Source: an uncultured Candidatus Saccharibacteria bacterium (GTDB lineage: Bacteria > Patescibacteriota > UBA1384 > DTJR01). From it: a DNA stretch of 64,000 nucleotides. Below, one piece after another: positions 565 through 49,518 of this stretch (positions are counted from its first letter, which is position 1; every line of letters starts with the position of its first letter). Position numbers and translations under genes: made by a program. The notes under the pieces were generated by a model. That model searched no databases and was not told where the DNA came from. It saw nothing but the letters and a program-made list of their open reading frames with translations. Location of the stretch: NCBI GenBank assembly GCA_964487045.1, contig CAZAOT010000002.1:53305-117304 (forward strand), in the 5' to 3' direction.

Positions 565-616
565 GATTTTCTATCGAGTATCGACAGCAAAATCAATATT
601 TAGTAGTTAGTAGCCA

Positions 617-844
617 GGCGAAAAGTGCGAGCACTTAAGCCTATTAATAATAGATAGCTCTCTGAAGTTGAAAGCTGGAACTGATTATCTTGGCAAACTT
701 GCCCAAGAATGAATTCCAGAAGGTTCAACAATGAGAGCTTCACCAAGGGCGTTGCGGGGGTAAGGAAATCGTTAAAAACCTAGGGGACACACCGAAAGTG
801 TCCTCTGGGTTGTTAACATCTATGCGAGCTTATAGCTCGCCAAT
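617..844. repeat. Copy A of a ~228-bp conserved element (candidate structured ncRNA / accessory-segment boundary repeat)
   Basis: Near-identical to 20487-20712 (about 20 substitutions over 228 bp, same orientation). Contains predicted helices AGCTCTC(656-662)/GAGAGCT(733-739), GTTGAA(667-672)/TTCAAC(724-729), hairpin CTTGG(689-693)/CCAAG(703-707), hairpin GGGGACAC(783-790)/GTGTCCTC(798-805) and terminal hairpin GCGAGCT(824-830)/AGCTCGC(834-840). Confidence 0.6.
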
Positions 845-937
845 AGATATTCAAATCTATACTTTGTGTTAGGTTTGTGCTATTGTAATTACGCCCTTTG
901 GCGCCAAAACGCCTTTTTTATTTTAAAAGGATTATGC

Positions 938-9868: not shown

Positions 9869-10858
9869 ATGAATGATAAAAATTTTCAGAAAAATGTAGA
9901 AAGACTAATCGATCCAGTCAGTGTCGGATCTATTCACTTTGCTCAGACTTTCAATCAAAAGCTACCCAAGTCAGTGCAGACAAAACTAATCGAATCTTCA
10001 TCAAAAACTATTTCTTCGATGGGTTTTGTGGTTGAGCCATACAGCTCGTTTCTATGCTACGAAATAATTGATCTTGAAAAAGCCAAAGAACTTCTCCCAA
10101 GAGGCTTTAAAATGATTAAAACAAGAATATTCGACGATGATGAGCCCAAATATTATTCAATTTTCGGCTGCTTCAGGGCCCATACGAGTGCATTCTGGGG
10201 ACTTAGGAACGAGTTTTATATCATTGCTGAGAATGAATCTACTGGACTTTTGAGCTGGATAATTGTCGATTATGATTCGGACACTATCAGCTACGATAAA
10301 GCTAGTGGCTTAAGGCCACCAAACGCTCCCAGGTCAGTTGTGACCACAGACTGCAAAGGCTTTGTTTTGGTAGATATCAAAAATCCCGAGCTTAACCGTC
10401 AAATGATTTTCAGTCTTAAAGTCGAAAACGGAGTGCATAAGAAGCTCGATCAAAGACTTTGGCTTGAGGGTAATTTATCAATTGGATACGGTAAAGTCTT
10501 GTCGAAAAATAACGCTGACATATTCTCTCTCAAATTCGAGCCCTGCGAAGTCGAGAAAGCACTTAAAATTGACGACAAAGATCTAGAGCTGGAGTCAAAC
10601 ACCTGGTATCCCGGCTTGATTGCCGAGCAGCCTAGCCAGATCGTTTGTTTTCCTTATGCACAGCATTTCGTTTCTGACAGCCCGGGATTTTCTAGCAATA
10701 TAAAAGATAGAGATGAGTTAATTGATGCAGTCACAAAAATTGATTTCAATAAAATCAAAGTAATGTCACCGAAGTCATTTCAGCAGATGATTGTCGTAGG
10801 TAGCGCTGTTTCTTTTGTGATTACAATTATTTTGATAATTCTACTAATAATTAAATAA
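9869..10858 (+). CDS. Hypothetical protein with a C-terminal transmembrane anchor
   Basis: 329-aa ORF with a C-terminal hydrophobic helix (IVVGSAVSFVITIILIILLII), followed by hairpins. Confidence 0.5.
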   Translation: MNDKNFQKNVERLIDPVSVGSIHFAQTFNQKLPKSVQTKLIESSSKTISSMGFVVEPYSSFLCYEIIDLEKAKELLPRGFKMIKTRIFDDDEPKYYSIFGCFRAHTSAFWGLRNEFYIIAENESTGLLSWIIVDYDSDTISYDKASGLRPPNAPRSVVTTDCKGFVLVDIKNPELNRQMIFSLKVENGVHKKLDQRLWLEGNLSIGYGKVLSKNNADIFSLKFEPCEVEKALKIDDKDLELESNTWYPGLIAEQPSQIVCFPYAQHFVSDSPGFSSNIKDRDELIDAVTKIDFNKIKVMSPKSFQQMIVVGSAVSFVITIILIILLIIK

Positions 10859-10902
10859 TATAAATTTCTGATTTGGCGAGCTAGAAGCTCGCGCTTATAT
10901 TG

Positions 10903-10946
10903 AAAACCCCAAGAACTTGTTGCGGGCAAGTTCCTAGGTTTTCAAA
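10903..10946 (+). terminator. Intrinsic terminator after the 9869-10858 gene
   Basis: AAAACC..AAGAACTTG-TTGCGGG-CAAGTTCCT..GGTTTT long imperfect hairpin ending in a T-run. Confidence 0.55.
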
Positions 10947-11100
10947 CTTTCCTGACCTCAACACGCTTCAGGGACTACTCAAATTTTTTCTTACTGATGA
11001 GCCTCGCCCTGACAAGTTTGCAGGGCTACTCATCTAGCGAAAAAATTCTCACTTTATTTGTTGTTTGGATAATTCAAAATTAACCAAACTATAAGTAAAA

Positions 11101-11133
11101 GAAAAACCCCCGGACGCAAGCGGCCGGGGTTTG
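11101..11133. terminator. Bidirectional GC-rich terminator
   Basis: CCCCGG-ACGCAAGCGG-CCGGGG hairpin with A-run and T-run flanks, directly downstream of the minus-strand gene 11151-11438. Confidence 0.7.
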
Positions 11134-11150
11134 TAGCGACAGGTCCTCTG

Positions 11151-11753: not shown

Positions 11754-12317
11754 ATGAGTTCTAAAGAGAGGGTGGGAATATTTATTGATGGCAGTAATCT
11801 GTATCACAAGCTGAAAAATAAAGAAATAAATATTAAGAACACAGGTAGATTTGATTTTTGTGAATTCTGTAATTGGTTAGCACGCGATAGGGAGATTATT
11901 TTCAAAGCATATTATATCGGAGTTGTACGAGCTAAGGCTGACGACAAGAAAGCTCAGAACATGCGAAAAAGCCAACAGAAATTGTTTTCTCATTTATGCA
12001 GCAAATCACAAAATTTTGTTGTTAGACGTGGGTTTATGATGAAAAACGACGGTGCATTTCATAAAAAAGGAGTCGATGTACACCTAGCCACAGACCTATT
12101 AGTTGGTGCGTACGAGGATTTGTGGGATACGGCAATAATCGTTTCCTCAGATACAGACTTAATTCCAGCGATTGAAAAAGTTAAACAGATCGGAAAGAAA
12201 GTCGAATATATCGGCTTCGCTCATCTGCCCAGTTTTGGCCTGCAGAAATATGCATCACTATCCCGGCTCTTGATAAAAGAAGATGTTCAGGCTTTTGAGT
12301 ACAAAAATGAAAGATAA
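11754..12317 (+). CDS. NYN-domain (LabA/DUF88-like) predicted RNase
   Basis: VGIFIDGSNL, GVDVHLATDLL and IVSSDTDL motifs of the NYN/LabA fold. Confidence 0.75.
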   Translation: MSSKERVGIFIDGSNLYHKLKNKEINIKNTGRFDFCEFCNWLARDREIIFKAYYIGVVRAKADDKKAQNMRKSQQKLFSHLCSKSQNFVVRRGFMMKNDGAFHKKGVDVHLATDLLVGAYEDLWDTAIIVSSDTDLIPAIEKVKQIGKKVEYIGFAHLPSFGLQKYASLSRLLIKEDVQAFEYKNER

Positions 12318-12483
12318 GTGCCTTGTTCAATTGGAGATAGAGAAAAAGTTGAAAATAGTATTAAAAGCGGGAGGCGTCACCAGCAGCACGTAGCTTTCGG
12401 TTCGTTTCTCCCTCTTAATTAACTATAATTTATTCATTTTATCAACTTTTGTCAATATTTAGATTAAAAATATATTATATATT

Positions 12484-12516
12484 TCCTTGCGTATCAGGTT
12501 AAAAAGTTCTATTATT
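12484..12516 (+). promoter_or_regulatory. Copy 2 of the 33-bp promoter-like module, upstream of the small membrane protein / hsdM operon
   Basis: Exact duplicate of 11510-11542, 33 nt upstream of the ATG at 12549. Confidence 0.45.
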
Positions 12517-12548
12517 AGCCAAGAAGTTAGTAATTAAATTTATTTTTT

Positions 12549-12809
12549 ATGGATAGAATCGAGAAATTAGAAGAAGAGATTCAGCTGATTAAAAAACGAA
12601 ACACTTCGGTTGAGCTGGATAAGCAGTGGGAAACCAGCTGGACGAGAAGGGGACTGATCGCACTTTTCACTTACTTAGCAATCTCGCTTTATATGCTTGC
12701 AATTAACATCGACCGACCGTTTCTCAACGCCATCGTCCCAACCGTCGGCTTCATGCTCTCAACCTTGACTTTGCCGTGGTTTAAAAAGATGTGGATAAAA
12801 AATAAATGA
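12549..12809 (+). CDS. Small membrane protein (2 TM) heading the RM operon
   Basis: 86-aa ORF with an N-terminal coiled segment and two hydrophobic helices. Confidence 0.45.
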   Translation: MDRIEKLEEEIQLIKKRNTSVELDKQWETSWTRRGLIALFTYLAISLYMLAINIDRPFLNAIVPTVGFMLSTLTLPWFKKMWIKNK

Positions 12810-12902
12810 ATATCGACTATAAAGAATTAGAAAAGTTTTTGTATAACGCCAATTTAGTCTTTGAGCAAAATTTTATTGGTGGGATAATTGTGGGGAGGAA
12901 TA

Positions 12903-14483
12903 ATGACCGATGATCAAAAAAGAAATTTAGAAAAGCAGCTCTGGGGTGTCGCGAATGTGCTGCGCGGTAAGATGAATGCCGATGAGTACAAGAACTACAT
13001 TCTCGGCTTTATTTTTTATAAGTATCTTTCTGAAAAGCTGGAAAATTTTGTTGATGAAAAGTTGCTAAAAGGCGACGGAATAAAATTTTCAGATATTAAA
13101 GAAAATACAAAAGAGGGGCAAGAATACATTACTAGCATAAAAAAGCGCTGTTTAAACGAACTTGGCTTTTTTCTTATGCCGACCGAATTATTCTCCTACT
13201 TGGTAAAAAAGGGCAAAGGCGATTTGAAAACCGACGGCAATTTCATTCTCGAAGATCTAAAAAGTGTTTTAAACAAAATCGAACAAACATCTCAAAATAC
13301 TGACTCGGAAGATGACTTCAAGGGGTTGTTTGCGGACGTATCACTAACTTCAGACAAACTGGGCAATGGTGAAAATAAAAAGAATGAAACAATTGTCGAT
13401 GTGCTGTCTTTATTAGATGAAATTGACTTCAAACTAGATGATGCAAAAAGTGATCTTTTGGGTGATGCTTATGAATACCTAATCGGCCAATTTGCTGCCG
13501 GTGCTGGCAAAAAAGGCGGTGAATTCTACACCCCGGCACAAGTTTCTCGACTTTTAGCCCAAATTGTGACCGAAGGGAAAAGCCGTATCCGCTCTGCATA
13601 TGACGCAACTTGCGGCTCGGGTTCTTTGCTTTTGCGCCTTCGCGAATTTTCTCAAGTAGATGATTATTACGGTCAAGAGCTAAACCCGACAACCTACAAC
13701 CTCGCCCGCATGAATATGATTCTTCACGGCGTTCACTTTGATCACTTCAATATCAAACAAGGCGATACGTTGACAAACGATCTGCATCCGGATCTTAAAG
13801 CCGAAGCAATTGTTGCTAATCCGCCATTTTCTGCTGAATGGAAGGGCGAAAAAGATCCCGCACTTGTCCAGGATGAGAGATTTGCGCAATATGGACGACT
13901 CGCTCCAAATAAAAGAGCTGACTATGCTTTCGTAACTCACATGATTCATCACTTAGCTGATAATGGCATAATGGCAATTTTGCTTCCTCATGGTGTGCTT
14001 TTTGCCGGCTCTGCTAATTTAACAATTCGCCGATATATCATTGAGAAATTAAATTATTTAGATGCAGTAATAGGGTTGCCGGCCAATTTATTTTATAATG
14101 TCGGGATACCTGCATGCATTTTAGTGTTCAAAAAATGCCGCAAACAAGACGGCGATATTCTCTTTATCGATGCGTCACGAGAGTTCGCTAAAGGCAAGAA
14201 TCAAAACCACCTGACAAGCGAAAACCTTGCCAAGATATTTGAAACTTACAAAGACCGCAAAGAAGTCGATAAATATTCGCACAAGGCAACACTCGATGAA
14301 ATCAAAGAAAACGACTTCAATCTAAATATTCCTCGTTATGTCGATACCTTCGAACCAGAACCGGAAATTAACCTCAACGAAGTCGTCACCGAAATCAAAA
14401 AGATCGACACCGACATGATCGAAGTCGATAAAAAAATCACAGAATATTGCAAGGAATTAAATATAAAATCACCTTTTCAATAA
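12903..14483 (+). CDS. hsdM: Type I restriction-modification system methyltransferase subunit
   Basis: HsdM N-terminal domain (LWGVANVLRGKMNADEYKNYILGFIFYKYLSE), AdoMet motif I (DATCGSGSLL) and motif IV NPPF (IVANPPFS). GGGGAGG RBS before the ATG at 12903. Confidence 0.9.
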   Translation: MTDDQKRNLEKQLWGVANVLRGKMNADEYKNYILGFIFYKYLSEKLENFVDEKLLKGDGIKFSDIKENTKEGQEYITSIKKRCLNELGFFLMPTELFSYLVKKGKGDLKTDGNFILEDLKSVLNKIEQTSQNTDSEDDFKGLFADVSLTSDKLGNGENKKNETIVDVLSLLDEIDFKLDDAKSDLLGDAYEYLIGQFAAGAGKKGGEFYTPAQVSRLLAQIVTEGKSRIRSAYDATCGSGSLLLRLREFSQVDDYYGQELNPTTYNLARMNMILHGVHFDHFNIKQGDTLTNDLHPDLKAEAIVANPPFSAEWKGEKDPALVQDERFAQYGRLAPNKRADYAFVTHMIHHLADNGIMAILLPHGVLFAGSANLTIRRYIIEKLNYLDAVIGLPANLFYNVGIPACILVFKKCRKQDGDILFIDASREFAKGKNQNHLTSENLAKIFETYKDRKEVDKYSHKATLDEIKENDFNLNIPRYVDTFEPEPEINLNEVVTEIKKIDTDMIEVDKKITEYCKELNIKSPFQ

Positions 14484-14484
14484 A

Positions 14485-15042
14485 ATGAAGAACCCCGAAA
14501 ATTACGATGCAATTCGAATTGATGGAATAATTTGGAAGATACAAGGATCTGAAGTTATTCCAATTTGCCCAAAAGATAATTTACAAATGTACCCAGTTAA
14601 TAATTCTCGTTTTGGATGGGAAGATGATATTTATAATCGTAGTAATATTCTAAAATGCCTAGATGATCATTTTGTCGAGATGAAAAGGGGCTATGGTGAT
14701 GAGATACGCTATATCACTGACCGTTTAAAGGCCAGGGATCTTAAAAATATTAAAATTTTAAACCTTGATGATGAAGCTATGCCGATTGCAAAAGCAAATT
14801 CGAAAACAACCGATAATAAATATTCGGCAACTATTCAAGTAATGGAATCAAAGCGTGGATTGCAGGTTGTCGTTTACGCTGGAAAAAAGGGTGGCAAAAA
14901 TACACAAATTTTCGTAGAGCCGGAAGCGAAAAAGATGAGTTTTGATCATAATGATGCACACCCCAGTGAAATCTTTACTGAAATTACTGCGAAATTTCAA
15001 GACGGTACTTCCAGCACAATTAAAAAAAATGACAAAAATTAA
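14485..15042 (+). CDS. Hypothetical protein embedded between hsdM and hsdS
   Basis: 185-aa ORF starting 1 nt after the hsdM stop and overlapping the hsdS start by 12 nt; no recognisable motif. Confidence 0.5.
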   Translation: MKNPENYDAIRIDGIIWKIQGSEVIPICPKDNLQMYPVNNSRFGWEDDIYNRSNILKCLDDHFVEMKRGYGDEIRYITDRLKARDLKNIKILNLDDEAMPIAKANSKTTDNKYSATIQVMESKRGLQVVVYAGKKGGKNTQIFVEPEAKKMSFDHNDAHPSEIFTEITAKFQDGTSSTIKKNDKN

Positions 15043-16255
15043 CACCCCAAAACTTAGATTCAAGGAATTCACTGACGAGTGGCAAGAAAAAAAGCTCTGC
15101 GATGTTTTGTTGTGTATTGTGGATAATCGTGGAAAAACACCTGGATTATCCAGCAGGGGAATTCCCTTGATAGAAGTAAATGCAATGGGTGCAAAGAAAG
15201 TTGATTATTTTGGTATCAACAAATATGTCAGCGATGAAACTTATGAAAAATGGTTTAGAAAGCATATTTCAGAGGGAGATGTATTATTCAGCACGGTCGG
15301 AAAGACAGCGGTATGTTCTACTTATAGCGGGGACAAAAAAGCTGCAATTGCTCAAAATATTGTTGGCCTGAGAGCAAATCATCAAAATTCTGCAAACTTT
15401 TTATATTATTTATTAATTGAACCTAGTAATAATAATAAATTTAAGAAAATAGAAATGACTGCTGTTCAGCCAAGCGTTAAAGTTTCTCAAATGATTCACC
15501 TAAAATTTAATCTGCCTCAGAAGCCCGAGCAGCAAAAAATTGCTGATTTTTTAGGAGCGGTGGATGAGAAGATTGAAAAATTGGAAGAAAAGAAAAAGGC
15601 ATTTGAAAAATACAAAAAAGGCATTATGCAGGCAATTTTCAGCCAAATGATTCGTTTCAAAAAACCCGACGGCTCAAATTTTCCGGATTGGGAAGAAAAG
15701 AAATTAGGAGAAATTGGTGAATTTTATCGTGGCCACAGCTACACGGCTGCTAACGTTAAAGTCGAGGGTTTCCTTGTGCTTAGGTCAAATAATATCCAAG
15801 GAAATAAATTAATAATCAATCGCGATCTTCAATTTGTTAACAAGCCTTTTGGTAAACAAATAGCGCTGAGAAAAGATGACATAGCAATATGCATGGCAAA
15901 CGGTAGTAAGCAACTGGTCGGCAAATCAGCTGTGTATGATGGGGATTACAACGGTCCCGCTACAGTTGGCGCATTTTGCTCAATTTATCGATCAAAATGT
16001 TTATTAGCCAAATATTTATTTGAATTGTCAAAGTACGACCGGGAGATTGAACTTCTCCTAAGCGGCACCAACATCAACAATTTAAAAAACTCGGATTTAG
16101 CGAGTATAGGATTCAAATTACCCACATCATTTGAAGAACAAGAAAAAATTGCAGAGTTTTTGTTTACGTTAGATAATAAAATCAATTTAATAAATAGCCT
16201 GCTGGAGCAGACAAAACTTTTCAAAAAATCATTGCTGCAAAGGATGTTTGTATGA
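15031..16255 (+). CDS. hsdS: Type I RM specificity subunit with two target-recognition domains
   Basis: N-terminal PKLRFKEFTDEWQEKKL, central conserved coiled region (QQKIADFLGAVDEKIEKLEEKKKAFEKYKKGIMQAIF) and a second half with the same architecture. The ATG at 15031 is the likely start. Confidence 0.85.
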
Positions 16256-16515
16256 AACCCGAAAACTATGAGCAGCTAAATACGGTTCATTTAGATGACC
16301 TTGATCGTCTGTTGAATTCATGTGGCATAAATTCAGAATACAAACAAAAAAAGGTTAAGTGCAAATTTTGCAAAAACACAATCGACAGTAATAATGTTTA
16401 TTCTGTATTCAAGGATTCAGGTTCTTACAAATTAATATGTGACCGACCAGAATGTATTCAGTCACTACTACAACTTGTTAATGAGCGGAAGAAAAAGGAG
16501 TGCGGTAATGAATGA
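16252..16515 (+). CDS. Small Cys-rich (zinc-ribbon-like) protein embedded in the RM operon
   Basis: 87 aa, CKFCKN...CDRPEC. The ATG overlaps the hsdS stop (ATGA) and the ORF overlaps the next ORF by 8 nt. Confidence 0.4.
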   Translation: MKPENYEQLNTVHLDDLDRLLNSCGINSEYKQKKVKCKFCKNTIDSNNVYSVFKDSGSYKLICDRPECIQSLLQLVNERKKKECGNE

Positions 16516-17617
16516 TGCTTGGAAGTATTTATCGGGATTTGGTTCAGGAACATTTATTACAATAGTTATTGCGTATATCCTTTTTAAGAACCCCGAGGTC
16601 GTCAAGAAATGGGGTGCAATATTCTACGATCTTCTATCAAGAATATTTGATAAGTATAAATATAAATCCGAAAAGTATAGAATCGAAACAAAGCTCAATA
16701 GCTTCGTTGATGATCTCTCTAGAGATTCCGACATCGATCCAACTAAAGTAAGGATTCAATGGGCGGCTAGAGAGGAGGATGAGAAATGTTTAGTTAATGA
16801 TAATGACGTAATTATTGTTATGCGCGATAGAGAACACAAACATAGAAACTTTGTTCACGCAGCATATTTTTTTACATCCAACATGCTGCTCTGGAGAACA
16901 AAAAGACACATTTCAAAAAAACAAGGGCAAGCGATCGATATATACACAGCAAAAAAAATCATAGAGAAAGACCCTGTTTCGCTAAGGATTTATTTAGAGA
17001 ATTATTTTCAGCCACTTCTTGAAGATGCTGACGTTAATAAGTTGGTAAAAAAATTCGTCGAAATTGATAAGTCGGGATTTTATACTAATATTCTTCTAAC
17101 TGAATTATCTTCCCTTGGTTATAAAACACTTTTGGACGCAAAGGACAGCGACATCGTAGTTGAGGCAAAACTTCTCATTGAATTTCTCTATAATTTTGCA
17201 AACCGCGAACTTGGTGATGAGCAAACTGAAGATACCTTCATCGGAAAATATTCTAGGTGCTCTATTAAGATTGTTTCTACAATTACACTCAGAATCCTCG
17301 ATCGAGTTGAGTCTCCAGCGAAAAGAATTCTCGACGCTTTTTCCAGAGGTCTAGAAAATGTGTACATTATTGGACCTTACGGTGAATATGGCAAGGTTTT
17401 TATTGACAAAGTAATAGATAAGGTAATTTCATCAAATGAAAATCTGGTAGTTTGTCAAAAAAGAAAATTTACTGGCTGTATTAAAAAGGATGGCGAGAAG
17501 ATTTCGATATTAACATATTTTGCTCATATTCAGAATCCTAAACAGATATCCTATTTAATTACTGATGATATGACAGAGAGAATTGAAAAATTTAAAACTG
17601 AGGCTGTTGAAAAATGA
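16508..17617 (+). CDS. Hypothetical ~370-aa protein with N-terminal TM helix, embedded between hsdS and hsdR
   Basis: GGAG RBS 8 nt upstream of the ATG at 16508. N-terminal hydrophobic helix (FGSGTFITIVIAYILF). No P-loop or known nuclease motif seen. The stop overlaps the hsdR ATG (ATGA). Confidence 0.5.
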   Translation: MNDAWKYLSGFGSGTFITIVIAYILFKNPEVVKKWGAIFYDLLSRIFDKYKYKSEKYRIETKLNSFVDDLSRDSDIDPTKVRIQWAAREEDEKCLVNDNDVIIVMRDREHKHRNFVHAAYFFTSNMLLWRTKRHISKKQGQAIDIYTAKKIIEKDPVSLRIYLENYFQPLLEDADVNKLVKKFVEIDKSGFYTNILLTELSSLGYKTLLDAKDSDIVVEAKLLIEFLYNFANRELGDEQTEDTFIGKYSRCSIKIVSTITLRILDRVESPAKRILDAFSRGLENVYIIGPYGEYGKVFIDKVIDKVISSNENLVVCQKRKFTGCIKKDGEKISILTYFAHIQNPKQISYLITDDMTERIEKFKTEAVEK

Positions 17618-20409
17618 CAACACAATCCGAATTACAACTTGAAAATACATTAGTCGAGCAAATGCAGCGGTTGGGGTTTGAGTCGATTACAATCGATGGC
17701 GTTGATGCATTGGTTGCAAATCTCAAAACTCAACTCGAAAAATTTAATCAAATAAAATTTTCCGATGCAGAGTTTGCGCAAATTTTGAATCATTTAAACA
17801 AAGGCGATCGATTCCAGAAAGCAAAGACTCTGCGCGACCGATTTATCGTTCGCCGAGATGATGGTGAGACATCGTTCATTCGATTCTTTAATATGGATCA
17901 GTGGTGCAAAAATGAGTACCAAGTTGCAAGGCAGATCACGCAAATTGGCAAATATGAAAACCGCTATGATGTAACTCTTTTGATCAATGGCTTGCCTTTA
18001 GTGCAGATTGAGCTAAAGCGCCGTGGAATGGAAATGAAAGAAGCGTTTAATCAAATCCAACGCTACCACAAACACTCGTTTACTGGAACATTATTTGAGT
18101 ATGTTCAGATTTTTGTTATCTCAAATGGCGTTAACACTAAATACTTTTCAAATAACCCAAACCAATCGTTCGAACAAACTTTTTTTTGGACCGATGAGAA
18201 GAATGAGAAGATAACTAGACTGGAAGATTTTGCCAAGTTATTTCTAGAAAAGTGTGCGGTATCCAAATTCATTGCCGAGTACATTGTACTCGCCGAATAC
18301 CATAAAATCCCATTGGTTTTGCGACCGTATCAGTACTACGCAGTAAAAGAAATTGAATCGCGAGTTAAGGAATCAAACAAAAACGGTTACATCTGGCATA
18401 CCACCGGCTCGGGGAAGACTTTGACATCATTTAAAGCCAGCCAAGTACTCTCAGGAATTCCAGAGGTAAAGAAAGTTTTGTTCGTAGTTGACCGCAAGGA
18501 TTTAGATATTCAAACGACCAAGGAATTCAATTCATTTTCCGACGGCTCGGTGGACGGAACCGATAACACTCGGCATTTAGTTAGCCAGCTAGAGGATAAA
18601 AACCGCAAGCTAATCGTTACAACGGTTCAGAAACTTGATATTGCCATTGGCCGAGAAAGTTATTTGAAAAAGCTGGAATATTTGAAAGATGAAAAAGTAG
18701 TTATCATTTTTGACGAATGTCACAGAGGTCAGTTCGGTCAGACGCATGCGAGAATTAAATCATTTTTTAAGCGCGCGCAACTTTTTGGTTTTACTGGCAC
18801 GCCGATTTTTGCTGAAAATAATGTTGGCGGAGTAACAACGGCCGATGTTTTCGATGAATGCTTGCATCGCTACATCATTACCAATGCGATTTCTGATAAT
18901 AATGTTCTGGGGTTTGCGGTTGAGTATGTAGGCAAATACAAACAAAAGGATAGCGATGTGGTTGATAAAGATATTTTTGCAGATAGTATGGTGGAGGGAA
19001 TAAATACTCGGGAAGTTTTGGAAAGTGATGCGCGGGTTGAAAAGATTGCGGAATATGTGTTGCAAGACTGGAAGCGAAAGACCAAAAATGGAAAGTTCAA
19101 TGCATTCTTTGCAGTTTCGAGTATTGAGATATTAAAGAAATACTACAAGATTTTATCTGCCAAGAAGCCAGATGATTTTAAGATTGCTACAATTTTTACA
19201 TATCAGGCCAACGAAGATGAAGTCATTGATTTGGACGTTGACGCATTTCCAGAGGAGGGCGAACCGGTCAATCAGCATTCGCGCGATTTCTTGGAGAGCT
19301 GTATTAAAGATTACAATGCATTATATTCGACTAACTTTTCAACTGACCGATTTTATGACTATTACCGAGATTTGCAGCAAAGAATTAAAAAGCGAGAAGT
19401 TGATTTAGTTTTGGTCGTAAATATCTTTTTGACTGGTTTTTATAGCCCTCGCTTAAATACTCTATATGTCGATAAAAACTTACGCTATCACGGGCTGATT
19501 CAGGCATATTCGCGAACAAATCGTTTGCTTGATTCCGATAAGCCGCATGGCAATATTGTTTCGTTTAGGAATTTGAAAGAAGCGACAGATAAGGCGCTGG
19601 CACTTTATGGCGACGAGAATGCAAAAGAAATTGTTTTCAAAAAGCCGTACAAGCAACAGAAAAAGGAATTTGAAGTAAAGCTTGTTGGACTCCGGGAGAA
19701 GGTGCCGACCGTTGAGTCGGTTGATGGACTAAAAAGCGAGGATGAGTTAGCTGAATTCGTTAAATCGTTTCGTGATCTACTTAGAGTTAAATCGTCGCTG
19801 GAGACATTTGCCGAATTTTCATTTGCTGATTTAGGTATTTCTGAACAAGAATTTTATGATTATCAAAGTAAATATTTGGATATATATGACGAAAGAAAAG
19901 AACATGGGCAAGGGCCTGAATTGATTCTTGATCAAATTGATTTTGAGTTAGAACTGACAATTAGAGATGTGATCAATTATGACTATATAATTATGCTGAT
20001 TGCTGGACTAAAGAATATAACTTCGGATCGATTGAGAGAAAAGAAGGCTGAGGATATTTTGCGAATGTTTGATCGAGATGTAAAGCTCAGAAAAAAGAAG
20101 GATCTAATAAAGAAATTCATTGAAGAAAATTTGCCAAAGATCGACAAGGCAGAGAGCGTTGAGAAAGCGTTTGGTGAATTTTGGGCAAACGAAAGATCGA
20201 AGGTTTTGCGAGATTTGGCAAGCGAAGAAAATATTCCGGTTGAAAATATCGAGGAGTTGGTAGGTGAATACTTATATACACAAAAATTACCGAAAGATCA
20301 GGAAGTTGCCGACATTCTGCCAGCAGGAACTAAGTTCTTAAAGCAGCAAGGCCTGATTGATCGAATTAAAGGTGTGATTGAGAAAATTGTAGATGTGTTT
20401 GAGTGGTAA
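17614..20409 (+). CDS. hsdR: Type I restriction enzyme R subunit (SF2 helicase/endonuclease)
   Basis: Walker A HTTGSGKTLT, DEAD-box-like FDECHRGQ, and 931 aa typical of HsdR. Confidence 0.9.
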   Translation: MTTQSELQLENTLVEQMQRLGFESITIDGVDALVANLKTQLEKFNQIKFSDAEFAQILNHLNKGDRFQKAKTLRDRFIVRRDDGETSFIRFFNMDQWCKNEYQVARQITQIGKYENRYDVTLLINGLPLVQIELKRRGMEMKEAFNQIQRYHKHSFTGTLFEYVQIFVISNGVNTKYFSNNPNQSFEQTFFWTDEKNEKITRLEDFAKLFLEKCAVSKFIAEYIVLAEYHKIPLVLRPYQYYAVKEIESRVKESNKNGYIWHTTGSGKTLTSFKASQVLSGIPEVKKVLFVVDRKDLDIQTTKEFNSFSDGSVDGTDNTRHLVSQLEDKNRKLIVTTVQKLDIAIGRESYLKKLEYLKDEKVVIIFDECHRGQFGQTHARIKSFFKRAQLFGFTGTPIFAENNVGGVTTADVFDECLHRYIITNAISDNNVLGFAVEYVGKYKQKDSDVVDKDIFADSMVEGINTREVLESDARVEKIAEYVLQDWKRKTKNGKFNAFFAVSSIEILKKYYKILSAKKPDDFKIATIFTYQANEDEVIDLDVDAFPEEGEPVNQHSRDFLESCIKDYNALYSTNFSTDRFYDYYRDLQQRIKKREVDLVLVVNIFLTGFYSPRLNTLYVDKNLRYHGLIQAYSRTNRLLDSDKPHGNIVSFRNLKEATDKALALYGDENAKEIVFKKPYKQQKKEFEVKLVGLREKVPTVESVDGLKSEDELAEFVKSFRDLLRVKSSLETFAEFSFADLGISEQEFYDYQSKYLDIYDERKEHGQGPELILDQIDFELELTIRDVINYDYIIMLIAGLKNITSDRLREKKAEDILRMFDRDVKLRKKKDLIKKFIEENLPKIDKAESVEKAFGEFWANERSKVLRDLASEENIPVENIEELVGEYLYTQKLPKDQEVADILPAGTKFLKQQGLIDRIKGVIEKIVDVFEW

Positions 20410-20486
20410 GAGCTCGTCGCTTGCGACACCGATATCGAAAGTCGATCCTTATAAAAGCTTAGGACAAGTTTTTTACATGAGATAAG

Positions 20487-20712
20487 GCGAAAAGTGCGAG
20501 CACTTGAGCCTATAAAAAATATCACGCTCTCCGAAGTTGAAAGCTGGAACTGATTATCTTGGCAAACTTGCCCAAGAATGAATTCCAGAAGGTTCAACAA
20601 GGAGAGCTTCATCAAGGGCGTTGCGAGGGTCAGGAAATCGTTAAAAACCTAGGGAACACACCGAAAGTGTGCCCTGGGTTGTTAATATTAGCCGCGAGCT
20701 TTAGCTCGCCAA
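20487..20712. repeat. Copy B of the ~228-bp conserved element
   Basis: Aligns with 617-844. Helix partners changed in a correlated way (GCTCTCC 20526-20532 / GGAGAGC 20601-20607). Lies between convergent hsdR and the glycosyltransferase gene. Confidence 0.6.
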
Positions 20713-20739
20713 AAAATAATTTATATTATCTGCGAATTA

Positions 20740-21915
20740 TTATTCGCCCGAAACAGCTTTCTCAATAACCCCCAAAGTCCTCTTTGCCGCATCCTCCCAA
20801 TCAAACAGCTCTAATCTCTTTTTTCCATTTGTGATAAGTTCACCTCTAACCTTTTCATCCGTCAAAGCAGTGTAGAGCATTTCAGCAAGCTCCTTCTCAT
20901 CTTCTGTCTTATGAAGCAGGGCGGCTTTGCCTGTAATTTCCGGAATCGAAGTACAATCTGACGCGACTATCGGAATCTCGCAAGCCATTGCTTCTACAAG
21001 TGGCATACCAAATCCTTCGAATTTGGAAGGGAAGGCAAAGACTTTGGCAAAGCGCAGATAGTCAGCCATAATTTCATCCGGAATATATCCCGGCTCAATT
21101 ATGTCTTTTCGAATATTTTCATCAAGCTTATTTTTTTCACCTTCTATTTCTTCATATAAATACCCAGGTCGTCCGGCCAGCACTAGCTTTGTAGATAAAT
21201 CAGGGTGTTCACTTCGTAAAATTCCAAATGCTTTAATCAAGGTCTTAATATTTTTCTTAGCCTCGAGTCTGCCAATGAAATAGATATATTCACCAAGCTT
21301 CTTAATTGGTTCTGGAGCTTCACCTTTTTTCGCAGTGAACTTTTCCTTATCAAAACCATGATAGATAACGGTAATTTTTTTGGGATCAGCATTGTAGAAT
21401 TTGATAAGATCCTTCTTGGTTGCCTCAGAAATAGCGATAATCTCAGTCGCGTGCTTCACGGCGAAGCTCATTGACCAGTTATGGTAGAACCGTTCGAGTG
21501 GAGTATAGAGTTCGGGAAAATATCTAAATCCAACATCATGAAGAGTTGTGACAATTTTTTTAGGATGAAAAATCGGTATCGTGTGAGCAGGTTCAAATAG
21601 AACGTCGGGTTTATTTTGAATTAGCTCCCATGAAAGTCTGATCTGGCTCCATAGTTTTGGAAAAGGCATCACTTTATTTTCGGCATTATCTGATTTCGAT
21701 AAATAGCTAAGAGGAGTCTTGGAATAAAGTCTAAACAGTAGATCCTTCGACTTCCGGCCTCGCTCAATATCTCGGTCGGAACGCTCAGGATGACGCGACT
21801 GCGTCATTTTTACTAGATTTTTAATAATCTCTTGCGAGTAATATTCCGTCCCAGTTTTTTGCGCCACATTTGATCTTGATGCGTCGATACCTATAACAAA
21901 TTTTTTATTTTCCAT
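20740..21915 (-). CDS. GT-B glycosyltransferase, family 4-like
   Basis: C-terminal EGFGMPLVEAMACEIPIVASD (E-X7-E region) of retaining GT4 enzymes. Confidence 0.8.
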   Translation of the reverse strand: MENKKFVIGIDASRSNVAQKTGTEYYSQEIIKNLVKMTQSRHPERSDRDIERGRKSKDLLFRLYSKTPLSYLSKSDNAENKVMPFPKLWSQIRLSWELIQNKPDVLFEPAHTIPIFHPKKIVTTLHDVGFRYFPELYTPLERFYHNWSMSFAVKHATEIIAISEATKKDLIKFYNADPKKITVIYHGFDKEKFTAKKGEAPEPIKKLGEYIYFIGRLEAKKNIKTLIKAFGILRSEHPDLSTKLVLAGRPGYLYEEIEGEKNKLDENIRKDIIEPGYIPDEIMADYLRFAKVFAFPSKFEGFGMPLVEAMACEIPIVASDCTSIPEITGKAALLHKTEDEKELAEMLYTALTDEKVRGELITNGKKRLELFDWEDAAKRTLGVIEKAVSGE

Positions 21916-36013: not shown

Positions 36014-36640
36014 TTAGATGCTGTTCATAACGCTTTTTACAAGTTCAACATAACTTCTAGAGTGATTATAGTTGAATAAAGCGCTATCTATGTCTCCTCT
36101 GTCAGCTCCACCAGCAGCTAACAAGTTAGCTCCGGCGAAAACAGAGTCTCTAAGAGAACAGATATCGTTTCCTTCGTTGGCGTAATGCCTAAACGTTGAT
36201 GGCATAAACTGCATCGGACCAGTAGCACCAGCATAAGATTTTTTACATCCGCCGGTAGACTTACCAGTTTCGACTTGGTGAACAGCTTCAATAAGCTTCC
36301 AGTCTATACCAAACTTGTTAGCAGCTTCCCTATAAAGGGTTCTTAACTGCTCAAGTGAATAATCAGCAGCAACCGGAGCACTAGAAGTTACCTCAGCAAC
36401 TTGTACTCTTTCGCGAGCAACAAGCTGTCTTTGTTCTGAAGCGTTAATTTTCTTTTGGGCTTCCGATAGGCCAATTACAAACTCAACGTTTGGCTTGGGC
36501 CTTTCGATTTTAAGGTTCTTGTTTACCGAGAGCATAATTTTCTTAGGCTCGGCGGCTTCGTCTTGCGAGCTTGCATGGAGCGGTTGTAAGGCTCCCCAAA
36601 CTAAGACGAGCATTGTTAGAGGAAGAATGTAATTCTTCAT
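36014..36640 (-). CDS. Secreted lytic transglycosylase (SLT-domain)
   Basis: Signal peptide; catalytic-Glu context EAVHQVETG and GATGPMQFMPSTF. Confidence 0.7.
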   Translation of the reverse strand: MKNYILPLTMLVLVWGALQPLHASSQDEAAEPKKIMLSVNKNLKIERPKPNVEFVIGLSEAQKKINASEQRQLVARERVQVAEVTSSAPVAADYSLEQLRTLYREAANKFGIDWKLIEAVHQVETGKSTGGCKKSYAGATGPMQFMPSTFRHYANEGNDICSLRDSVFAGANLLAAGGADRGDIDSALFNYNHSRSYVELVKSVMNSI

Positions 36641-37094
36641 TGAAATAAAAATCTTCCGATGTTTCGGAAGAAGGTTAGGATTATATCAGAAAATGATAAT
36701 TTGTCAAGCCCCAAGGGCATATTTATAGCTATTTTAGGCAAGTTTGAACCTGTTAAGTAGAAATGCTATAAAATTTGAACCTGTAAATATTGAGAAAAAT
36801 ACAAATTTTGGGGCATAAAAACTATTGACAATTTGCCCATTATATGGTAAGTTTACCCCTTGCTTGATTCGCCCAGCTTGAAAAAAGTATTGAGGGCAGA
36901 ATTCCAGCTGGGAATTGCGGAGAGTTGCTTCAAATTTTTAAATGAAGCAGTGCCCCTCCTTCCCTTTTCCTGGCTGGAATCCTGCCCTTTTATAAAACCC
37001 GAGGATAGCGCTTTAGCGCTACTCGAGTTCTAGGGCAATACGTTCCTTGACATAAGGCAACAACTCGGCGCAACCAGCGCCAAGGAGGAAAGAG

Positions 37095-38480
37095 ATGAGA
37101 AGCACGATTCGCATAGCGACCGTAGTGCTAGTGCTGATGTATCTGGCATGTTCGGCCGCGATGTCGTTCGGGATCCTCGAGGGGTTGGCAATCTTCTCGG
37201 CTCTGGCCGGGAAGGGCGGCAAGCCTGAGCAGGTCACCGTAACCAAGGGTGAGATTTCCATGACGGCTACGCCAGTCATGGCGATCCCGACTGGGTTCGG
37301 TTTCAAGCTCCAGTCAATGACGTTCAACGTAACGGCTGGGACCGGGCTCGCTCCAGACTTCTATCATCCGGTTTTTCCTGTCTTGAAGTGCCTGGCACCC
37401 GATGGCAACCCCATCATGCTGGTACCAATTGACTGGCAACCGAATGGGAAGCCACTCCAGAATCTCCTCGTCACCCTCGACAACGAGCCAATCACGAAGG
37501 CTGTAGATGCTCGTTCACTCGTGGAGAACGAGGGTGCTTGGCTGCGACGAGCGATCCGCGAGGCCAACCGCGACCTTGGACGACAGTATGAAGATTCGAG
37601 CAACGTGCCCGACACCTTCTTCGAACCGTTCATCGCTATGTCAAAAGATGTCAAGCACTCCTTGACGGCTGACAAGCGCCACAACTTCAACAGTCCCACT
37701 GGAAGCGTCAACATGATGCTGGTCTTCCCGATGGGCAACCTCTTCTCGCGCCCGCATTTCGTCGCCTGCAACCTCAAGCAACCCGGCAAGGGAGATAACA
37801 GCTACAACTGCTCTTTCCATTTCCGGGTGCTCGATGAGCCGGTTGAAGTGCCGGCACCCTTCGAGTCGATCGTGCCCATGAACATTGACGGAAAGCTCTC
37901 GCAGCAGCAGATCACTCAGCCTGCACAGCAGGCTTCTGCACCGTCAGCTCAGGTAGCGGGCACCGCGGATAATCGCACTCTCGGAAGCGCGCCCCAACCT
38001 CAGCAACCGCAGTATCAGGCTCCGGCGCCCCAGCAGCAGGCCCCTCAGTACCAGCCGCCTGCCCAGCAATCACAGCCGAGTATTGCGACACCGCCAACGA
38101 TCGACAAGGCTGCGCAGTTCATCCTGCGCCCCGGCGATCAAGCATGGTGGAAGCCGTGCTCATGGGAGCGTCCGAGCAATTGGACGCCGGGTGATCATTG
38201 CTCGGTGGTCCTGTTCTTTCTGGACAGGAGGTACAACCTCCTGCACAGCGGGAACCTCGATGAACGGGACGTGGAGTGGTGGATCAACGGCGATCGGCAG
38301 GACATGAACTTGCCGTCGCATAACTCGATCACCTTTCCCGATCACACCCCGTCGTGCGGTGTGATCTATCAGCGCATGCCGTCAAACAGCGACATTACGT
38401 TGCTGTTCCGCGGCAAGCGCTACGGCTTCAGCACGACTCAGGCGAATATACTCTGGCGACCGATCATGGTCGCCGAGTAA
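37095..38480 (+). CDS. Secreted hypothetical protein with Pro/Gln-rich repeat (high-GC island)
   Basis: Signal peptide; low-complexity PQPQQPQYQAPAPQQQAPQYQPPAQQ block; GC about 60%; SD AAGGAGG. Confidence 0.6.
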   Translation: MRSTIRIATVVLVLMYLACSAAMSFGILEGLAIFSALAGKGGKPEQVTVTKGEISMTATPVMAIPTGFGFKLQSMTFNVTAGTGLAPDFYHPVFPVLKCLAPDGNPIMLVPIDWQPNGKPLQNLLVTLDNEPITKAVDARSLVENEGAWLRRAIREANRDLGRQYEDSSNVPDTFFEPFIAMSKDVKHSLTADKRHNFNSPTGSVNMMLVFPMGNLFSRPHFVACNLKQPGKGDNSYNCSFHFRVLDEPVEVPAPFESIVPMNIDGKLSQQQITQPAQQASAPSAQVAGTADNRTLGSAPQPQQPQYQAPAPQQQAPQYQPPAQQSQPSIATPPTIDKAAQFILRPGDQAWWKPCSWERPSNWTPGDHCSVVLFFLDRRYNLLHSGNLDERDVEWWINGDRQDMNLPSHNSITFPDHTPSCGVIYQRMPSNSDITLLFRGKRYGFSTTQANILWRPIMVAE

Positions 38481-43797: not shown

Positions 43798-43826
43798 TGA
43801 AAAAAGGCCCTTTAGGGCCTTTTTTC
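43798..43826. terminator. Intrinsic terminator after rplA
   Basis: AGGCCC-TTTA-GGGCCT followed by TTTTT. Confidence 0.75.
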
Positions 43827-44099
43827 ATATATCATAATAATTTTCCTTTAACAAAAGTCGATTTTGCGCTTCGAGAGGCCGATTCTAGCGAAGCGATTTT
43901 CGGAGTGTCTCAGAAAGCAAAATCGTCTTTTGGGCGAGCAGGGGTAAGGAATTATTAAAACCATAGGGGGCCGCTTCAAGAGTAGGCCCCCTTTGGTTTT
44001 GATATAACAGCAGCTTTTGCTGCTAGAAAGTATTTTAAAATACCTTATCCAAAAGAGGTCATGGGTTGACTTTTGGGGTGTTTTGTGCTATACTACTCG

Positions 44100-44514
44100 G
44101 TTACGATTTAGGGGGATTACCTCCGACAATCGAGCATGTTTGACAGGGAGGGTTTTTCCTTGAAAAAGCTTATGGAGTTCTTGTTCACCTGGAGGCAGAG
44201 CCGGATCATCCGGCGGCGTCTCCGGCAGTACTGCCCGCGAATCGCGGAGCAGAGCGTCAAGCGTGTGTTCGACCTGTTTCCTGGCTGCTAGCCGCCCCTG
44301 GAGCCGACACCTTCGCCGCAAGGTGACTGTGTCGGCTCCGCCACACTTTCAAGCGTTGACATCAAACGCTTTTTTTAGTACTATATTTCTAGTCAAAGAC
44401 AGCTGGGACCGAAAGGTTTAAACCATAACCCTGCCGAGACAAAACAAATTGGATTTTATTGTTTTGTTTACGACGTCTTTGCACGTCGTATTTATTTATA
44501 AAAAGTAATTAAGG
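44100..44514 (+). promoter_or_regulatory. Candidate ribosomal protein L10 leader (rplJ 5' UTR autoregulatory RNA) with attenuator
   Basis: ~250-nt GC-rich patch in an AT-rich spacer. Strong helices: GCCGACACCTT-CGCCGC-AAGGTG..GTGTCGGC and AAGCGTT-GACATCA-AACGCTT plus T7 (44351-44377), then ACGACGT-CTTTGC-ACGTCGT just before rplJ. Confidence 0.4.
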
Positions 44515-49517: not shown

Positions 49518-49518
49518 A

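Follow-up and report, generated by a model that had tools for sequence, protein, structure and literature searches.

CPR (Patescibacteria) genomes are small, and few of their non-coding RNAs have been characterised. A 64,000-nt stretch of one such genome (hereafter the window, to which all coordinates refer unless another locus is named) contains a repeat of about 230 nt. The question it raises is whether the repeat is the gene for a novel structured RNA, as a first-pass annotation made from the sequence alone had proposed, or a mobile element, a module serving the adjacent genes, or a boundary of inserted DNA.

A blastn search of the window with copy A (616-849) identifies copy B (20485-20718), likewise on the plus strand, with 90.3% identity over 236 columns (E=1e-87), confirming that the same-orientation repeat is real. 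A hand-gapped alignment of the two contains 24 differences in 235 columns; the similarity ends sharply at the limits of the element, and an A/U-rich tail, which B also has in common with copy C (see below), is conserved for ~20 nt beyond the terminal hairpin. Every helix that the first-pass annotation had quoted is found at the coordinates given for it. In particular, a 68-nt stretch that is the same in A and B contains the nested GTTGAA/TTCAAC, CTGGAA/TTCCAG, and CTTGG/CCAAG helices, and the GCGAGCT/AGCTCGC stems are also identical, with a loop one base shorter in B.

The pair changes between A and B, cited earlier as support for the fold, are only in part what they had seemed. Specifically, AGCTCTC (656-662) and GAGAGCT (733-739) form an outer helix in A that leaves T663 and T732 unpaired, and B has C and G at these positions, which pair (GCTCTCC, 20526-20532; GGAGAGC, 20601-20607); however, A656-T739 turns into a C/T mismatch in B, so that the helix shifts and does not grow. 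Similarly, in the GGGGACAC/GTGTCCTC hairpin, G784.T804 of A becomes G-C in B, but G786-C802 becomes A/G, a pair-breaking double change that had gone unmentioned. The folds of A and B are far better than those of shuffled sequences (z ~ -7), as is the fold of the reverse strand of A. Relative to A's own minimum-free-energy (MFE) fold, 14 differences are at paired and 10 at unpaired positions (p=0.37); relative to B's own MFE fold, 10 are paired and 14 unpaired (p=0.04). The claim that the differences are non-random with respect to the predicted fold is not supported as it was argued. Since the differences are not clearly depleted in stems, and since one of the cited hairpins carries a disruptive double change, A versus B taken alone is weak evidence for selection on structure. 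A and B as the template/variable pair of a diversity-generating retroelement were rejected, because the differences are not adenine-specific. Copy A contains no open reading frame (ORF) of at least 60 aa, as had been noted, but a mechanical 105-aa TTG ORF (20298-20615, minus strand), with no equivalent at A, overlaps B and the 3' end of hsdR.

Copies A and B arose recently and belong to a single subfamily within a larger family of 180-235-nt elements. Copy C was first detected as a minus-strand match near 10.9 kb in a blastn search with the 3' end of B. C and A/B share the blocks CAAACTTG, GGTCAGGAAA, AAAACCTAGG, and GCGAGCT..AGCTCGCCAA; the stems between these blocks differ, with pairing preserved. 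A two-block pattern scanned over 185,579 species genomes gave 15 matches, 14 of them chance-like and one a true relative (locus L030, in an unclassified MAG). The family is rare, the exact joiner-plus-P5 motif occurring in one of these 185,579 genomes besides chance matches. A stricter pattern, applied to JGI metagenomes, gave four true relatives (L037, L038, L039, and L041), of which L037 is the same element as L030. All searches used a nhmmer profile and a single-sequence covariance model, R1, seeded from the L041 element alone. R1 recovers C, H, B, A, and the elements of L030, L037, L038, and L039, with E values from 1e-8 to 1e-28, and nhmmer agrees; the window thus holds at least four family members, C and H in addition to A and B, and the earlier count of two was too low. 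A looser relative (I; 28 bits) is present in locus L050, from a Berkelbacteria-group MAG (GCA_043824275.1); its 5' half closely resembles that of the L030 copy, and its 3' half lacks the GGUNAGGAAAG and AAAACCUAGG blocks. The search for further copies that the first-pass annotation had recommended was therefore productive, with relatives recovered from one genome-collection MAG, JGI metagenomes, and one Berkelbacteria MAG, and nine copies are known (A, B, C, H, L030/L037, L038, L039, L041, and L050; Table 1 lists those in the window). The subfamilies in the window (A/B, C, and H) are each closer to copies from other samples than to one another. Phage and plasmid records contain no similar sequence (blastn, distant mode), four patterned scans of viral contigs gave only chance matches or none, and a literature search returned nothing describing this element.

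Table 1. Element copies in the window, their parts, and features beside them.
Feature	Position	Strand	Evidence or sequence	Flanks or context
Copy A (A/B subfamily)	616-849	+	blastn; nhmmer E=4e-22; R1 35.9 bits (727-843, 3' half only)	Intergenic; HTH_40-domain gene (ends 564) and ABC-F ATPase gene (938-2389)
Copy A, 5' hairpin	617-641	+		
Copy A, large 5' domain	656-739	+		
Copy A, purine-rich joiner	740-770	+	..AAGGGCG..GGGTAAGGAAA	
Copy A, long hairpin P5	771-817	+		
Copy A, terminal hairpin P6	824-840	+		
Copy A, A/U-rich tail	to ~866	+		
Copy B (A/B subfamily)	20485-20718	+	R1 42.7 bits, E=1e-9; model-aligned part 20521-20713	hsdR stop (20409) and stop of convergent glycosyltransferase gene (20740-21915, minus strand)
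Copy B, P5	20640-20686	+		
Copy B, P6	20694-20709	+		
Copy C, diverged, shorter	10873-11055 (~10850-11085 with 5' hairpin and tail)	-	R1 79.5 bits, E=1.7e-19	Terminator of minus-strand gene and stop of convergent ORF 9869-10858
Terminator-like hairpin and T run of upstream minus-strand gene (context only)	11097-11131	-		Just 5' of C
Copy H, diverged	43850-44027	+	R1 71.3 bits, E=2.5e-17	rplA terminator and sigma-70-like promoter 44066-44094
rplA intrinsic-terminator-like hairpin (context only)	43800-43825	+	12-nt perfect arms, then T run	Immediately upstream of H
NYN nuclease (PADLOC HEC-09/NYN), hsdM, hsdS, 392-aa protein without family, hsdR	11754-20409	+		Defence-type block with a type I restriction-modification system, located between C and B

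Two other matches returned by these searches are recorded separately. One of the 14 chance-like genome matches is on a Mailhella (Desulfovibrionaceae) MAG contig (L031, 3479-3535, minus strand), where ..UAAGGGUAAGGAAAG-GGGGAAAACCUAGGGA-CUGA-UCCCUUGGUUUUCCCC forms a joiner-plus-P5-like perfect hairpin. The GGA-rich stretch that contains this hairpin is next to a csrA-fliW fusion gene and convergent with it. The L031 motif may be a chance match enriched by the search pattern, a distant relative, or a CsrA-binding RNA, and it is left as uncertain because the pattern itself forced most of the match. An unusually long intergenic gap between an SLT-domain gene and its neighbour (L044, 3472-4433; window, 36640-37095) is conserved in position in several relatives; in L044 it gives a weak R1 match that is not significant (13.6 bits, E=0.06), and it may hold another non-coding feature.

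The copies share a common fold. At the 5' end, an optional small hairpin comes first, followed by the motif (A)AC-AAAAG, of which AAAAG pairs with a downstream CUUUU; a long helix encloses a GAUGAG/CUCAUC helix, whose internal loop is UAG / CGAG(G), and an AACN-tetraloop hairpin. An unpaired purine-rich joiner, G(A/G)GCG-N4-6-GGGU(C/A/G)AGGAAAG (also given as GGGUNAGGAAAG), leads into the long hairpin P5. Both strands of the P5 base, UUGAAAACCUAGG / CCUGGGGUUUUCAA, show sequence conservation, and the U.G pair there is kept; the upper stem varies freely, and the last bases of the loop are GCAA or GAAA, which are GNRA-like. P5 is connected by a short linker to P6, a helix of 6-7 bp that is different in almost every copy (GCGAGCU, GGCAGCU, GGCAAGG, GCAAGCU, AGCAGC) and always paired, and an A/U-rich tail follows. 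In A and B, all that is left of the first pairing is a local hairpin, AAGUG-CGAG-CACUU, after which comes a larger, rearranged 5' domain; L030 has an extra hairpin inserted, and L050 has a different 3' half. These differences make the element modular. At the P3/P4 internal loop, AGUA/GAG may form an S-turn-like loop. A K-turn at the same loop was rejected because the sequence does not fit, as was a pseudoknot between GCG of the joiner and CGC of the P5 loop, which fails in A, B, and H.

Compensatory change, which had been sought between A and B, is strong across eight copies, and it comes from diverged copies that the first-pass annotation did not include. In the eight-sequence model-guided alignment, which is fitted to the structure of the model and so leans towards it, 92.5% of 440 cells form standard pairs versus 71.6% in shuffles, and 50 of the 64 pairs have changes on both sides, counts that come from eight sequences only. 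None of 500 shuffles reaches any observed measure, and sliding the partner by 1-3 columns lowers pairing to 38-47%. A sequence-only MAFFT alignment of five copies, analysed with RNAalifold, recovers P3/P4, P5, and P6 with 14 compensated pairs. The fold is thus maintained by compensatory change across organisms, and it is very probable that the copies constitute a conserved structured family. Across the eight copies, G.U cells outnumber A.C cells by 36 to 5, an excess that fixes the folded strand as the strand given. The excess fits RNA and fits the folding of single-stranded DNA equally; a 185-nt multi-branch fold with GNRA-like loops is, however, more typical of RNA.

None of the 4227 models of Rfam 15 matches the element. 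At gathering threshold, the whole window yields only the ribosomal protein L10 leader, upstream of rplJ (44375-44505; 44.7 bits versus a threshold of 44), and, at E<=10, A, H, and the L041 element yield only chance-level matches far below threshold; with no tRNA or tmRNA found either, the earlier statement that the element resembles no nameable RNA family is borne out. What we take to be resemblances of GAGGAAAGU to the RNase P P4 strand and of UUAGGGUG to a T-box sequence are short and lack model support. A six-frame listing of eight copies contains no shared ORF, frame, or peptide, and one-base indels break the frames; a type I toxin-antitoxin or coding locus was rejected on this basis.

The copies occupy a characteristic genomic position. 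All nine are intergenic, a same-strand gene or terminator precedes seven of the eight with a readable upstream side, and, in C, H, L030, and L039, the terminator hairpin of the upstream gene itself is located 20-45 nt before the element. A convergent gene comes next after five of the nine (B, C, L038, L039, and L050), and, in the three readable co-oriented cases (H, L030, and L041), a separate promoter follows, read in the sequence and, for H, also obtained by scan. The element is therefore not a 5' leader, in agreement with the first-pass annotation, which had excluded a 5' cis-regulator from the position of B; a T-box or other 5' leader riboswitch was rejected for the same reason and for the absence of a match to RF00230. 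The neighbours are L1, MreB, ComEC, ABC-F ATPase, glycosyltransferase, HsdR, or proteins without family, and no protein family recurs beside the copies.

Two stretches of the window next to copies, outside the repeat, merit separate mention. Between copy A and the ATG of the ABC-F gene (938), positions 850-937 contain overlapping alternative hairpins, CGCCCTTTGGCG / GGCGCCAAAACGCC and then TTTTTTATTTT, which look like an attenuator-type leader by analogy; leaders of this type are known for antibiotic-resistance ABC-F genes. Downstream of H, at 44066-44370, a strong sigma-70-like promoter (44066-44094, TTGACT-17-TATACT) is followed by a G+C-rich stretch of ~270 nt before the rplJ promoter and L10 leader. 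To judge from its sequence, this stretch could encode a peptide of ~54 aa or another RNA. The corresponding position in relatives is taken by a small ORF (69-75 aa), and Rfam gives no match.

The sites themselves turn over. The L1 and glycosyltransferase proteins of the window have their best homologues in entries with the names Candidatus Berkelbacteria or Patescibacteria, which identifies it as part of a CPR chromosome; its G+C content is 40%. Filled and empty sites were compared among relatives at the conserved rplA-rplJ interval, which in the window carries H on the plus strand. The closest relative (L042/L043; L1 76% identical) lacks the element there and has only a perfect 33-nt hairpin, GGTAACTAATTGACGGTCGTCAATTAGTTACAG (L042, 1303-1335); L048 has nothing, and L044 and L049 have small ORFs. 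L046, a Berkelbacteria MAG, has an unrelated element of ~230 bp (10900-11150) with 21-bp terminal inverted repeats, GCGTACCAATTATCGACTGCT ... AGCAGTCGATAATTGGTACGC, and a MITE-like appearance. In L050, family member I occupies the space from the same terminator to the same promoter downstream, in the opposite orientation. At the site of B, a relative with a 77% identical glycosyltransferase (L054) has no gap, no element, and no restriction-modification genes. In these comparisons, the flanks of the relatives are too diverged to give exact element boundaries. Logan short-read contigs end inside A and B, and genome and metagenome matches are located ~100-400 nt from contig ends, as expected for a repeat. 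Elsewhere in the same loci, two adjacent genes for TrwB/HerA-like ATPases (~820-870 aa, DUF8128) occupy 47058-52083 of the window and the same place in L044-L050, the pair being conserved downstream of tgt in all Berkelbacteria-group loci fetched.

Empty sites, opposite orientation, contig ends, and subfamily relationships together point to repeated gain by insertion or exchange and argue against vertically fixed genes. Insertion is read here from presence/absence and orientation only, and we regard gain and loss by insertion as somewhat more probable than the contrary; neither a target-site duplication nor a terminal inverted repeat was found, and no transposase, reverse transcriptase, or other mobilising gene. 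The proposal of a novel structured non-coding RNA is thus supported in part, in that the element is conserved, strongly structured, strand-specific, non-coding, and without an Rfam 15 match, but it behaves like an insertion-prone repeat and not like a stable single RNA gene.

The reading that we prefer, with a probability of about 0.5, is that the repeat is a dispersed, insertion-prone structured-RNA element of an uncatalogued family in Berkelbacteria-like bacteria. Its features are RNA-like, with folding on one strand only, and its transcript would most likely be a structured small RNA. In this scheme, the element would spread by insertion or horizontal exchange, non-autonomously, using a factor encoded elsewhere; RNA would be its functional form; the invariant joiner and loops could provide a binding platform for a protein; and P5, an A-tract / stem / U-tract hairpin, could potentially stop transcription in both directions. 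A point against this reading is that no canonical sigma-70 promoter precedes the element on the sense strand.

The copies might instead be ordinary chromosomal small-RNA paralogues, that is, trans-acting structured sRNA genes duplicated and diverged in place, lost in some lineages, immobile, and binding or sponging a protein through the GGA-rich joiner. The covariation and strand bias, the conservation of an unpaired joiner containing AGGA, and the placement of copies after terminators, as for independent genes, would all fit such genes, as would the -10-like hexamers that immediately precede the 5' hairpin of C, L030, L041, and L050, which are a weak signal in an A/T-rich context. However, a promoter is not a consistent feature: a simple scan gave no sense-strand upstream sigma-70 promoter at any window copy and did give good promoters nearby (e.g. 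44066-44094). Moreover, the closest relatives have no element at the sites of H and B, the L050 copy is in the opposite orientation, four copies in 64 kb are unusually dense for a streamlined genome, and the subfamilies in the window are nearer to copies in other organisms than to each other. We consider immobile paralogues rather unlikely.

A cis-acting module at the 3' ends of genes, serving as terminator or insulator and as mRNA stabiliser for flanking, often convergent genes, in a role like that of REP/BIME or ERIC, was also weighed. P5 and P6 are terminator-like on one or both strands, and a simple scan flags P5 in C on both strands, in A and B on the antisense strand, and in H not at all. 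The location of five of nine copies between convergent gene ends, and of seven of eight readable copies behind a same-strand gene or terminator, is what such a module would show. Against it, the upstream gene of C, H, L030, and L039 already has a strong terminator of its own before the element, P5 is followed by short U-tracts (3-4 U), and a 100-nt multi-helix 5' domain with an invariant unpaired joiner is superfluous for termination. A 3'-end role therefore appears unlikely. An antisense promoter formed by CGCCAA and P6 was also tried and rejected, since it is present in B, C, and L041 and absent from the other copies.

A more far-reaching version of the preferred reading would make the element a new RNA-centred mobile element of CPR bacteria: protein-less, SINE-like or ribozyme-bearing, copying itself into post-terminator gaps through its folded RNA with an enzyme encoded elsewhere, and having the invariant joiner and P5 base as its catalytic or recognition core. 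We hold this version to be improbable. Class C group II introns of bacteria have their insertion sites directly behind intrinsic terminators, and the element resembles them in being structured, in having no inverted ends, and in being located shortly downstream of terminator hairpins, mostly in the orientation of the terminator; in contrast to them, it is far too small, lacks a GUGYG 5' end and a domain V, and leaves a gap of 20-45 nt after the terminator. A group II intron was rejected on its length (180-235 nt), its 5' end (AACAAAAG), and the absence of an Rfam intron match.

The element could also be the single-stranded-DNA or guide-RNA part of a transposon, namely orphan ends (such as rolling-circle IS91-like ones) or a scaffold RNA (omega-RNA or HEARO-like) of an insertion sequence whose protein is encoded elsewhere. 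It is asymmetric, without terminal inverted repeats or target duplications, has subterminal hairpins at both ends of several copies, and folds in a strand-specific manner. HEARO and IS200/IS605-derived repeats are multi-copy with orphan copies, and the element is multi-copy including orphans as well; it is also like HEARO/omega-RNA (Rfam RF02033 and relatives) in its ~200-nt length, multiple helices, strong covariation, many copies per genome, patchy distribution, and ORF-less orphans. It is unlike HEARO/omega-RNA in having no sequence similarity to it and no covariance-model match, at a cut-off as loose as E<=10, to HEARO or another RNA family associated with insertion sequences. None of the nine copies adjoins TnpA, TnpB, IscB, or another transposase-like ORF: Pfam, NCBIfam, and PADLOC searches of ~0.5 Mb gave no IscB/TnpB/TnpA and no transposase or nuclease family beside the window copies or those of L030, L038, L039, and L041, and the called neighbours of the L050 copy have no such Pfam family. 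In addition, the 5' hairpins (GCGCC/GGCGC, AUCGC/GCGAU, and AAGUG/CACUU) differ from the 3' P6 of the same copies, whereas IS200/IS605 ends share a hairpin that one TnpA recognises, and conserved loops with varying stems are the opposite of what is expected for a guide-bearing RNA. An origin as a transposon part accordingly appears distinctly improbable.

The last alternative, att-like boundary repeats of an island or a neutral segmental duplication without function of its own, is very improbable. C and B, inverted with their 5' ends inward, do flank the NYN and type I restriction-modification block, and beside the glycosyltransferase gene of one relative B and the island are both missing, so that the paired-boundary scenario raised in the first-pass annotation has one suggestive case. 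However, C and B come from different, old subfamilies, which excludes a duplicated att pair; no insertion is visible with A or H as its boundary; A, H, and the metagenome copies each occur singly, between housekeeping genes; similarity stops sharply at the element ends; and covariation across organisms indicates selection on the fold. A MITE derived from a DDE transposon was likewise rejected, since an inverted-repeat scan finds only internal helices and no direct repeat is common to the sequences flanking A and B.

In its behaviour, the element most resembles dispersed repeats of the HEARO/omega-RNA and BOX/ERIC types, and it has the defining features of none of these. It is like BOX, ERIC, bcr1, Correia, and RPE in being dispersed and intergenic, in being modular with optional modules, and in its strong predicted folds, terminator-like hairpins, and presence/absence between relatives. 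Most of those repeats are either simple palindromes or MITE-like units that have terminal inverted repeats and target duplications. In contrast, the element has an asymmetric, multi-branched form, invariant segments that stay unpaired, and compensatory change between species. It is like the orphan structured non-coding RNA motifs that comparative genomics has brought to light (raiA, ROOL, RAGATH, and similar Rfam 'Gene; sRNA' motifs) in being defined only by conserved sequence and covarying structure, largely in uncultivated bacteria, and unlike them in being multi-copy per genome, unstable in position, and without an Rfam 15 model match.

With a density of about one copy per 16 kb in the window, and given the covariation, the invariant unpaired segments, and the gain and loss, the element is unlikely to be neutral. 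The R1 model could be deposited as a new RNA family, and the element explains contig breaks in short-read assemblies of these organisms. For the biology of this lineage, the family would represent either an unrecognised mobile element that shapes genomes, their defence islands and the breaks in their assemblies included, or an abundant RNA whose role in the cell is specific to the lineage.
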